Assembly (NCBI GenBank): GCA_900696455.1
Contig: CAADGB010000349.1
Location: 1-15,921, forward strand
Origin: an uncultured delta proteobacterium
GTDB taxonomy: Bacteria > Myxococcota_A > Polyangia > Haliangiales > Haliangiaceae
Length of the DNA stretch: 15,921 nt
Direction: 5' to 3'
The notes beneath the pieces are model-generated. The model was not told the origin of the DNA. It saw only the letters and a program-made list of their open reading frames with translations, and ran no database searches. Below, one piece after another: positions 901-3,383 of the stretch. Both the position numbers and the translations under genes were made by a program. How positions within the stretch are numbered: position 1 is the stretch's first letter; every line of letters begins with the position of its first letter.

Positions 901-1911
901 TCAGGCGGCGCGCTCGTCCAGGTGCCGCCGCACCAGCCGCGCGCACCACGCGATCGCGCCGGTCGCCAGCAGCAAGCAGACGACGAACAGCGGCAGGCCC
1001 TGGGCGCCGTCGAGCGTCGCCCGCCACTCGATGGCGTGGGCGCGATCGACCTCGCGCAGCGCCGCCACCGCGAGGAACAGCGCGACCGCGCCGACGGTGG
1101 CCAGCCGTCGCCCCGCCCGCCCGCGCCCGCCGGCGAGCGCGATCATCCCGGCCGCGGTCACCGCCGCGCCGCTCCCCGCCAGCACCAGCCACGGCGTGGC
1201 CATCGCCGGCAGCTCGCCGGCGCGCCCGCCGACCGTCCCCACCGCCGCCGCCGCCGCCACCGCCAGGCCGGTCAGCCCGAGCCCGCCCAGGCGGCGCAGC
1301 TCGGCGCGTCCCGCCCGCGCCCCGGCCAGCCACGCCGCGCCGGTCGCGAACGCCACCGCCGCCAGCCCCAGCCACAGCGCCAGGCGGACGGCGATCACCG
1401 GGTCGCGGTGGAACACGCGCCCGTCGCGGTAGTGCGCGACCCAGGTCTCGGCGCCGGCCGCGGCCAGGGTGTGCTCCTCGATCCACGACCACGCGACGAA
1501 GAGGAACGCGAGCAGGGCGGCGCCGCTCACCAGCCCCCGCCGCGCCCCCGACCACGCCCGCGCCCGCACGCTCTTGCCCAGGTACAGCAGGTAGAAGCCG
1601 GCGATGAGCGCCGGCACGATCGCCATGAACCGGTGCGACATGAGGAGCGTCGCCGTGTACACGCGGTGCTGGTAGAGGACCTGGATCAGCAGCAGCGGCG
1701 CCACCCCGGCGGTGATCGCCGCGCCGAGTGCGAACGGCAGCCAGTCGCGGGCCGCCGCCGCCACCGGGTCGTCGCCGCCGACGAGCGCCCGCGCCGTCGC
1801 CCACGCCGCCGCGCCCAGCACGAAGCCGACGAGCAGCGCGTGGGCGGCGAAGGTGACCACGAGCAGGAGCACGTAGCCCCCCGGGCCACCGAGCTCGGCG
1901 AACAGGCTCAT
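901..1911 (-). CDS. Ala/Gly-rich polytopic (about 8 TM) membrane protein, possibly the subunit II (CydB-like) partner of the upstream CydA-like oxidase
   Basis: The 336-aa product starts MSLFAELGGPGGYVLLLVVTFAAH and has multiple hydrophobic helices. It shares the frame of the spurious 1379-aa ORF, but only this C-terminal part looks protein-like. Its ATG overlaps the TGA of the upstream gene as ATGA at 1908-1911, indicating translational coupling. Position after a CydA-like gene suggests CydB; similarity to E. coli CydB is not obvious by eye. Confidence 0.6.
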   Translation of the reverse strand: MSLFAELGGPGGYVLLLVVTFAAHALLVGFVLGAAAWATARALVGGDDPVAAAARDWLPFALGAAITAGVAPLLLIQVLYQHRVYTATLLMSHRFMAIVPALIAGFYLLYLGKSVRARAWSGARRGLVSGAALLAFLFVAWSWIEEHTLAAAGAETWVAHYRDGRVFHRDPVIAVRLALWLGLAAVAFATGAAWLAGARAGRAELRRLGGLGLTGLAVAAAAAVGTVGGRAGELPAMATPWLVLAGSGAAVTAAGMIALAGGRGRAGRRLATVGAVALFLAVAALREVDRAHAIEWRATLDGAQGLPLFVVCLLLATGAIAWCARLVRRHLDERAA

Positions 1912-3383
1912 CGCGCACCCCCGCGCCCGCCACCCGTGGCCTCGCCCGGCGGCCGCGGCCGCTCCGGCGCCGGCGCGGTGCCGGCCTCGTCGAGCCAGCG
2001 CCCGATCTGCGCCAGCGCCACCGGGTCGTCGGACACCGGCCAGGCGGCCGGCGCGCCCGCCGCCTCCCAGCGGATGAGCTGGGCCACCGCCTCGACCTCG
2101 GTCGCCGGCCCGGCGAACGGCGGCATGAAGCCCTTGGTCTCCTGCAGGCGCGCGATCGCGATGCGGAGCTGCTCGAGCGACCAGGCGCCGCCGAGGTGGA
2201 CCAGGCCGTTGGCGCCCTTCATCGTGTGGCAGGCCGCGCACTGCAGCCGCACCACGCGCGCCCCGAGGGCGAGCTGCGCCGTCGGGTAGCGCGCGGCGTC
2301 GCGCAGCGGGTACGGGTCGCGCGCCACCGAGCCCTCGGCGCGCAGCCGCGCGACCTCGGCCGGCGCGATGGCGTTGGAGTACAGGACCTGGCGGATCGTG
2401 AACGGCTTGCGCGCGCCCGCGCGCACGAACTCGCCGGCGGCGGTGGCGCCGAACGCCAGCGCCAGCAGGAGCGCCGCGGTCGCGCCGCTCACGTACAGGC
2501 GCCGCCACCAGATCCCGACGAGCGCGTAGGCGCCGATCAGCAGCGACGCCCCGGCGGCCAGGGCCAGGAACATCGACATCGCGACGCTGCCCCCGGTCAG
2601 CCACGCCCGGCTGTCGGCGGGGATCACCGCCACGTACCACAGCCCCAGCGCCGGCATCGCCGCCATCGGCACCAGCAGGCGCGCGGCGCGGGCGAGGAGG
2701 GCGTGGCGCGCGGCGCGGTCCAGGTCCATCGTGTTGATGACGGCGATCGCGGCCAGCGCCCCCAGCGTGCTCGACACCGCGACCCGGTAGAGCAGCGACG
2801 GCCAGAAGCTGGGGTTGAAGAAGCCGGCCCACACGTCGCCGGAGGCCAGCCACGCCCCCGGGGTGAGCTGCCACGACAGGATGCCGTTGATCCAGAACAG
2901 GCTGCCGAACGACGCCAGCGCGTAGGTGGCGAGCAGGCGCAGGCGCACGCCGTCGGGCAGGCGCTCGCCGTAGCGCAGGAACATGTAGCCGGCGACGATC
3001 TCGACCGCGAAGCAGCACCACTCGATCGCCCAGATCCAGTGGAACTCGTCGACCATGAGCCCGATCGTGTGCGGCCCGACCTGGATCGTCGTCAACCACA
3101 TCGCCACGCCGGTCAGGGCGCCGGTGACGAAGCTGACCAGCACCAGGTACTTGAAGAAGCTGTCGAGGAAGCGGCGAGCGTCGGGCACGCCGCGCCCGGC
3201 CAGCCACTGGAAGTACGTCATCAGGAACCCGCCGCCGATCGCGAACTGGGCGAGGAAGACGTGGAGGATGCCGACCGCGCCGATGACCATGCCGCGCATC
3301 GCCGGACCGAAGTCGTTGACCGGGTAGGCGGTCGGCTCCATCCCCGCTGGGATGATGCCACCGCCGGCGCCGGCATGCGTCAT
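1908..3383 (-). CDS. Cytochrome bd superfamily subunit I-like (CydA-like) membrane protein with a C-terminal mono-heme c-type cytochrome domain
   Basis: The N-terminal TM region ILHVFLAQFAIGGGFLM resembles the CydA TM1 His ligand region (AMYHFLFVPLTLGMAFLL). AIEWCCFAVEIVAGYMFL resembles the CydA AIEGLMAFFLESTFVGLFF block with its two conserved Glu. No long Q-loop is present. The C-terminus contains a class I cytochrome c motif, CAACH...GFMPPF (CxxCH plus a distal Met). Alternative start: the internal Met (MEPTAYPV) at 3338-3340. Confidence 0.7.
   Translation of the reverse strand: MTHAGAGGGIIPAGMEPTAYPVNDFGPAMRGMVIGAVGILHVFLAQFAIGGGFLMTYFQWLAGRGVPDARRFLDSFFKYLVLVSFVTGALTGVAMWLTTIQVGPHTIGLMVDEFHWIWAIEWCCFAVEIVAGYMFLRYGERLPDGVRLRLLATYALASFGSLFWINGILSWQLTPGAWLASGDVWAGFFNPSFWPSLLYRVAVSSTLGALAAIAVINTMDLDRAARHALLARAARLLVPMAAMPALGLWYVAVIPADSRAWLTGGSVAMSMFLALAAGASLLIGAYALVGIWWRRLYVSGATAALLLALAFGATAAGEFVRAGARKPFTIRQVLYSNAIAPAEVARLRAEGSVARDPYPLRDAARYPTAQLALGARVVRLQCAACHTMKGANGLVHLGGAWSLEQLRIAIARLQETKGFMPPFAGPATEVEAVAQLIRWEAAGAPAAWPVSDDPVALAQIGRWLDEAGTAPAPERPRPPGEATGGGRGGAR

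Follow-up and report, generated by a model that had tools for sequence, protein, structure and literature searches.

The cytochrome bd oxidases are regarded as oxidases of quinol, and every solved structure is of that type. A branch of the superfamily referred to as OR-C was defined from phylogenomics by Murali, Gennis & Hemp 2021 (bioRxiv 10.1101/2021.01.16.426971), who describe the OR-C1a protein as having eight transmembrane (TM) helices, no quinol site, and one or more haem c sites in a C-terminal periplasmic extension, and as preserving the Escherichia coli CydA residues His19, Glu99 and Glu107 but not His186 or Met393. The OR-C1b protein is described in the same work as an adjacent second subunit without haem c, for which the annotation is often 'hypothetical protein'. 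Here we report on a pair of genes, encoding what we refer to as subunits I and II, in a 15,921 nt stretch of DNA from an uncultured delta proteobacterium (contig CAADGB010000349.1; the whole of this stretch is referred to as the window). The features of the pair which match the published description support its assignment as an OR-C1-type heterodimer (OR-C1a plus OR-C1b). It should be noted that, as far as Table S3 of Murali et al. can be followed, Myxococcota and Planctomycetota are marked in what is presumed to be the OR-C column, the order of the columns being inferred.

Judging from the two protein sequences, the pair probably encodes a heterodimeric bd-superfamily membrane enzyme of the OR-C1 type which would take electrons from periplasmic c-type cytochromes, and not from quinol, and reduce O2, and this is the reading we favour, with some reservation. 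The features on which it depends are as follows (window coordinates, with the basis for each in brackets).

1908..3383, minus strand: subunit I gene, CydA-like plus cytochrome c (open reading frame, third-position GC content, Pfam, AlphaFold and Foldseek)
2412..3299, minus strand: membrane domain, TM1-TM8, residues 29-324 (profile alignment to E. coli CydA, 5doq_A match and model helices)
3261..3263, minus strand: His41 in TM1, equivalent to E. coli CydA His19, the axial ligand of the active-site haem (alignment)
3000..3023, minus strand: Glu121 to Glu128 in TM3, corresponding to Glu99 and Glu107 of the proton channel (alignment)
2784..2789, minus strand: Tyr199-Arg200, at E. coli Val185-His186 (aligned motif after N190-P191)
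2403..2432, minus strand: E318-F-V-R-A322-G-A-R325-K-P327, predicted periplasmic end of TM8 (aligned to W441-F-V-A-E445-Y-G-R448-Q-P450)
2034..2285, minus strand: class I cytochrome c domain predicted to be periplasmic, residues ~367-450 (matches to PF13442 and to cytochromes c6)
2226-2240, minus strand: haem attachment site C382-A-A-C-H386 (sequence motif)
2115-2126, minus strand: MPPF with the distal Met420 (aligned to the c6 haem ligand)
901..1911, minus strand: subunit II gene, 336 amino acids (aa), nine TM helices, putative OR-C1b-type partner (fold comparison)
1908..1911, minus strand: ATGA overlap of the subunit I stop and subunit II start (sequence)
1840-1842, minus strand: subunit II His24 in TM1 (kept in 72/72 homologues)
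1042-1056, minus strand: subunit II R286-E-V-D-R290 at the end of TM8 (E287 in 66/66 and R290 in 65/65 homologues)

A preliminary description, made from the letters of the sequence, had likened subunit I to CydA fused to a class I cytochrome c and lacking the long quinol-binding loop (Q-loop), and had suggested profile searches by which this might be checked. These place Pfam PF01654 (Cyt_bd_oxida_I) at residues 38-246 (E 3.6e-11, 42.7 bits with a cut-off of 26.2) and PF13442 at residues 370-435 (27.6 bits with a cut-off of 27), both over the curated cut-offs and far from what chance would give, and no NCBIfam model matched the protein. Sequence searches of PDB with the single protein or with a profile of its close relatives recovered cytochromes c6 only and no CydA. 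A profile of 43 distant relatives matched the Geobacillus bd oxidase subunit I (5doq_A, E 4.6e-16) and also 9r2g_A, 7ose_A and 6rko_A, while the C-terminal part matched cytochromes c6 and CcoP. The AlphaFold model of subunit I, which was built from a 60-sequence alignment (predicted local distance difference test score, pLDDT, of 92 and predicted template modelling score, pTM, of 0.88), has eight TM helices and a C-terminal helical domain, and when it was compared with PDB by Foldseek, nine CydA chains headed the matches (E ~1e-6, 338-451 aligned columns) and CydB chains came next. These computations show the fold of subunit I to be that of CydA, with eight TM helices, and the match takes in the first four helices, where the O2-reduction site of the superfamily lies.

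When the family profile was compared with E. coli CydA using hmmsearch, two collinear stretches were aligned, residues 10-236 and 374-457, the second of which covers the last two helices (independent E-value of 5.8e-5, for that one comparison). TM6 and TM7 are joined by 2-3 residues in the AlphaFold model, compared with ~150 in E. coli, and the Q-loop is absent as had been claimed. TM8 of the model stops at the ExxR(E/A)xxRKP motif and neither the model nor the CydA alignment has a TM9; with this helix lost, and with the Glu445 motif of E. coli marking the periplasmic end of TM8, the fused cytochrome c would sit on the periplasmic side of the membrane, a topology that we infer from E. coli CydA and the model.

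Residue equivalents were obtained by aligning the E. coli cydAB sequences with family profiles (hhalign and hmmsearch), and conservation was assessed in two samples, one of 43 distant representatives (23-59% identity) and the other of 80 species-representative genomes. The TM1 histidine recognised earlier in an HxFLxxFxxG context is present as H41-V-F-L-A-Q-F-A-I-G and is kept in 42/43 representatives and 80/80 genomes, and the AIE...E block which had been equated with the CydA di-Glu region, A119-I-E121 ... E128, does align with Glu99 and Glu107 (E121 in 40/43 and E128 in 41/43 representatives, and both in 80/80 genomes). E121 and E128 have six residues between them, as in the Geobacillus type, compared with seven in E. 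coli (a one-residue gap in hhalign), and a one-residue deletion between the channel glutamates is the spacing rule given for OR-C1a, as for qOR2-4 (Murali, Gennis & Hemp 2021, bioRxiv 10.1101/2021.01.16.426971). S161 corresponds to E. coli Ser140 (Ser or Thr in 43/43 representatives) and N190-P191 to N177-P178, and it is from our own reading of the aligned motif after the latter pair that we place Tyr199 at the His186 position. Elsewhere in both samples this residue is F, L, A, M, T, V or Y and never His (Murali et al. list F183 at this site in their Table S6), and R200 next to it is kept in 42/43 representatives. No conserved Met was aligned with E. coli Met393 in the comparison of the family profile with CydA. 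The alignment of haem ligands that had been suggested as a further check was borne out in part, with the His19 and Glu99 equivalents present and those of His186 and Met393 missing. We do not regard the missing ligands as a refutation because precisely this signature is given for OR-C1a by Murali et al. in their Table S6. The profile and ligand checks support the preliminary interpretation, as their results are those to be expected of the cytochrome-c-linked branch to which the protein had been likened. The active-site residues that are kept are H41, E121/E128, S161 and the family-wide Glu445/Arg448 motif at the end of TM8.

This motif was absent from the preliminary description. In the alignment, G317-E-F-V-R-A-G-A-R-K-P-F of subunit I is opposite E. 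coli G440-W-F-V-A-E445-Y-G-R448-Q-P-W, and the family motif, ExxRExxRKP, aligns with W441-E445-R448; Glu445 is the haem b595 ligand in E. coli. We found ExxRExxR[KR]P in 89/98 full-length representatives of clusters formed at 50% identity, including sixteen of the 8-haem, ~830-aa forms which typify the published OR-C1a, and among the distant representatives E318 is present in 42/43, R321 in 42/43, R325 in 42/43 and P327 in 43/43. Glu445 and Trp441 are marked as absent in OR-C1a in Table S6 of Murali et al. (bioRxiv 10.1101/2021.01.16.426971). The evidence from one HMM (hidden Markov model) stretch, motif identity and topology, which has no residue-level structural superposition behind it, suggests that the OR-C1a family keeps a Glu445/Arg448-type motif, contrary to the published table.

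The CxxCH...MPPF domain at the C-terminus of subunit I was also recognised correctly, as C382-A-A-C-H386 and M420-P-P-F. The best matches to cytochromes c6 have E 6.5e-5 when the profile is that of the close relatives and 8e-7 when it is the diverse one, and in matches to c6 the CxxCH and the Met of MPPF align with the c6 haem ligands. Both the CxxCH and Met420 are found in 43/43 representatives, and the domain is predicted by these computations to be a His/Met-ligated class I cytochrome c.

The two-gene unit, with a cryptic bd-fold subunit II, was likewise missing from the preliminary description. The subunit II gene begins within the ATGA that ends the subunit I gene, an overlap which suggests translational coupling of the two subunits. 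There is no Pfam match to subunit II, and no significant similarity to subunit I or to the CydA or CydB of E. coli emerged from profile-profile and HMM comparisons, so it is by fold that the protein is identified. The AlphaFold model (pLDDT of 89) has nine TM helices and the best 20 Foldseek matches are all bd subunits, and subunit II is thus predicted from its model to have the CydA/CydB fold of a bd-oxidase subunit. Neither a CxxCH nor a TM3 Glu pair is present in the sequence or in the alignment of homologues, and the R-E-x-x-R motif at the end of TM8 is found in 66/66 homologues. Subunit II diverges much faster than its partner, with 30-66% identity among relatives whose subunit I is 60-86% identical; near-invariant are His24, the block D56-W-L-P-F-x-L-G-A-A-I-T-A-G-V-A-P-L-L, and R286-E-x-x-R290.

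Subunit II is encoded directly downstream of subunit I and on the same strand in 72/80 species-representative genomes, or 72 of the 75 loci which could be tested (six genomes have no subunit II match, and in five of these the contig ends too early for it). It adjoins subunit I in a member of the Planctomycetota (Schlesneria, hhalign E 1.3e-78) and in another Myxococcales genome, and is also found beside a relative of subunit I of only 31% identity (E 1.1e-15). Because subunit II accompanies subunit I across lineages in which the other neighbours are not conserved, we take the gene pair to be the functional unit. In a single database protein of 498 aa from the Phycisphaerae (P0192), a match to the C-terminal ~100 residues of subunit I is followed by one to almost the whole of subunit II. 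Rather than a real fusion, this is most likely an artefact of gene calling where the stop and start codons overlap.

The window is ~75% GC, and the GC content at third codon positions (GC3) in the frame of 1908-3383 is ~1.00, with the other frames lacking a coding signal. Subunit I is 491 aa long, and with Met15 (ATG 3339-3341) as the first residue it would be 477 aa; the start is uncertain (3383 or 3341) because the NCBI start for a 99%-identical protein (477 aa) and the onset of conservation across the family both point to Met15. The exact protein is on record from one contig only, and near-identical proteins are found in Kofleriaceae/Myxococcales metagenome-assembled genomes. The subunit I family includes >1,300 clusters at 90% identity and 770 clusters at 50% identity, and phmmer links subunit I over its full length to the 8-haem ~830-aa forms (E 1e-40 to 1e-55). 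A genome scan, which used a less diverse alignment, found the single-haem subclade to which subunit I belongs in at least 570 species-representative genomes from Myxococcota, Planctomycetota and other groups, mostly of the Kofleriaceae, Haliangiales, Polyangium, Planctomycetaceae, Pirellulaceae and Phycisphaerae, with cultured strains of Polyangium, Schlesneria and Maioricimonas among them. Between Myxococcota and Planctomycetota subunit I is ~60% identical.

In the mechanism that we propose, a soluble or membrane-bound cytochrome c would reduce the fused haem c, which would replace haem b558 as the entry point and pass electrons to two high-spin haems bound at His41 and the TM8 glutamates; this would be the place of O2 reduction, with protons drawn from the cytoplasm via the Glu121/Glu128 channel, and with proton uptake from this side, charge separation would contribute to the proton-motive force. 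A number of points weigh against an oxidase of this kind. Our literature search found no biochemical work, purification or assay for any OR-C enzyme, which agrees with the earlier remark that almost none of the cytochrome-c-linked branch has been characterised (searches by locus tag and family name returned one proteomics mention and no biochemistry). The AlphaFold model is without cofactors, and the window contains no cytochrome c donor and no haem-maturation gene. The Glu445 equivalent is replaced in the window copy, where codon 322 (2418-2420) is GCG (Ala), and it is Glu in 80/80 genomes, in 5/5 other members of the 90% cluster, and in three sister contigs (as GAG). Finally, many carriers of the family are strict anaerobes, including Desulfovibrio, Thermodesulfovibrio and Flexistipes, and SMUL_0150, which is listed as an OR-C1a, was 8-40-fold more abundant in anaerobic fermenting Sulfurospirillum cells, the one functional result that the search returned. 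These last two observations fit a scavenging role better than energy-conserving respiration: with the same architecture, the pair would serve as a cytochrome-c-fed, protective scavenger of O2, H2O2 or NO with little energy conservation. Peroxiredoxin-type genes (AhpC-TSA/Redoxin) are found no more than a few kb from the pair at two loci which are unrelated, one from a Planctomycete (L002, 2946-4091) and one from the Myxococcales (L003, 10363-11423, where there is also a CMD/AhpD-like gene), which have no other neighbours in common, and this proximity may be coincidence. We consider a purely protective role to be unlikely for the window pair, as its family shares the conserved glutamates of the proton channel with the bd oxidases that conserve energy, and the subclade is mostly from Myxococcota and Planctomycetota, lineages regarded as aerobic. 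The two roles are not in any case exclusive, and canonical bd oxidases are reported to serve both.

The replacement at position 322 also raises the prospect that the family is active and that the window copy is defective or mis-assembled, having lost the Glu445-equivalent ligand. As well as being unlike all of the close relatives at this position and known from one contig, the window subunit I gene differs from those of the sister contigs (L005, 8529-10004; L006; L007), whose DNA is ~99.6% identical to the window, at 10 positions in 1476 nt (0.68%), compared with 0.36% across the shared 11.9 kb and one difference in the 1011 nt of the partner gene. Four codons are altered in amino acid, R105H (two bases), L134M, E322A and G362D; we had considered His105, which is Arg in close relatives, to be of note but dropped it as the position varies across the wider family. 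Against this, the open reading frame is intact, with a GC3 of ~1.00, and is still coupled to subunit II by the ATGA, and the 43 distant representatives include one other Ala and one Gly at position 322 (Glu in 40/43). The invariant Glu318, which is retained in the window copy one helical turn away, could substitute, and it may be either of these TM8 glutamates, or neither, that ligates haem. With the Glu445 equivalent replaced by Ala, the window allele might be impaired or might depend on Glu318, and the change may be an assembly error (in the consensus of a metagenome-assembled genome), a real polymorphism or a loss of function in a gene that is otherwise intact. A defective or mis-assembled copy seems to us quite improbable. 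The loss of the haem b558 ligands and the quinol site might be taken further, to mean that subunit I is not an oxidase at all and is instead a membrane-anchored cytochrome c or electron-transfer module on a degenerate CydA scaffold with no haem b or d site. This is very improbable, as the equivalents of His19, Glu99, Glu107, Ser140 and the Glu445/Arg448 motif are kept in 40-43/43 representatives at 23-59% identity, and neither this nor the ~60% identity between Myxococcota and Planctomycetota would be expected of a degenerate scaffold. The conventional alternative is that given by the NCBI and JGI names of relatives ('cytochrome ubiquinol oxidase subunit I' and 'cytochrome d ubiquinol oxidase subunit I'), and we give this almost no credence, as there is no Q-loop, His186, Met393 or TM9, subunit I carries a fused cytochrome c, and the partner is not recognisable as CydB by sequence.

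Returning to the favoured reading of a cytochrome-c-fed oxidase, a more speculative extension is that both subunits of the OR-C1 heterodimer could bind haems, which would give a pseudo-symmetric arrangement unlike that of any solved bd oxidase. This is conceivable because subunit I keeps the His19 and Glu445/Arg448 equivalents and subunit II has a TM1 His and R-E-x-x-R, and Glu322Ala would then be a natural ligand-loss variant, although we hold it to be doubtful. OR-C enzymes would be a third route from c-type cytochromes to O2, besides aa3/caa3 and cbb3, provided by a copper-free family. As members of the subclade are annotated wrongly as 'ubiquinol oxidase', metabolic reconstructions which count them as quinol oxidases are probably wrong, and with cultured strains in the subclade the biochemistry is accessible. 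The value of these observations lies in the family rather than in the window locus.

Of the other genes in the window, the nearest to the pair encodes an SBBP beta-propeller lipoprotein-like protein (514 aa, 3429-4973, minus strand) and stops 45 bp upstream of the subunit I open reading frame. Outside the closest relatives (L008, L015, L032 and L005-L007) it does not recur, and for this reason it probably lies outside the oxidase unit. We had considered it, together with the M23 peptidase and HEAT-cyclophilin genes, as part of the system and rejected all three as they recur only in the four closest relatives. A scan for promoters and terminators gave nothing usable in sequence of 75% GC. Further along the window there is a bacterial homologue of the major vault protein of eukaryotes (MVP; 845 aa, 9000-11537, plus strand), with matches to PF11978 MVP_shoulder (89.4 bits) and PF17795 Vault_3 (32.7 bits), and the same gene is present in the sister contig L005. 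Beside it are a Cys-rich protein of 369 aa (11558-12667, minus strand) with no Pfam match, and a protein with VIT, proprotein-convertase P-domain and VWA domains (12633-15092, plus strand); VIT and VWA domains are also found in VPARP, the eukaryotic vault partner.

Compared with the systems already described, the pair is a typical member of a known family, and the locus adds nothing categorically new beyond it. It is like OR-C1 in having an 8-TM subunit I with no quinol site, a C-terminal CxxCH that is predicted to be periplasmic, and an adjacent second subunit, and like OR-C1a in that it retains His19, Glu99 and Glu107, has one residue deleted between the two glutamates, and is without His186 and Met393. 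It differs from the OR-C1a of the Desulfovibrionia, which have up to eight haem c, in having a single haem c in subunit I, and from the published OR-C1b, with eight TM helices, in that the subunit II model has nine. A further difference from the published OR-C1a is the Glu445/Arg448-type motif which appears to be conserved in the family, with Ala at the Glu445-equivalent position in the window copy.

With CydAB (E. coli bd-I 6RKO, Geobacillus 5DOQ; qOR1-qOR3) the pair shares a fold common to both subunits, and subunit I keeps the TM1 His, the TM3 Glu pair, the TM4 Ser and the TM8 Glu-x-x-Arg-x-Pro motif. Unlike CydAB, subunit I lacks TM9 as well as the Q-loop and the ligands of haem b558, and the fused cytochrome c replaces the quinol entry site. 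Between subunit II and CydB no similarity of sequence could be detected, and we saw no small gene resembling cydX. There is also a resemblance to CydAA' (qOR4a/qOR4b) of Caldivirga maquilingensis, where subunit II is a diverged CydA-like paralogue in which, as in the 336-aa protein, the TM1 His is kept and the channel glutamates are lacking, but CydAA' is an archaeal quinol oxidase that has no haem c and whose subunit I contains a quinol site. The OR-N 'bd-like oxidases' of the Nitrospirota are likewise CydA homologues without a quinol site for which other donors have been proposed, but these have 10-14 TM helices, usually keep His186, have no fused haem c, and are found in larger operons with petABD-like or other partners. 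Finally, the attachment of a class I cytochrome c to a terminal oxidase is seen in cbb3 CcoP and caa3 subunit II, and PF13442 is itself of the CcoP type. This is a functional analogy only, as the catalytic subunit here is unrelated to that of the haem-copper oxidases and has neither the copper site nor the haem-copper fold.

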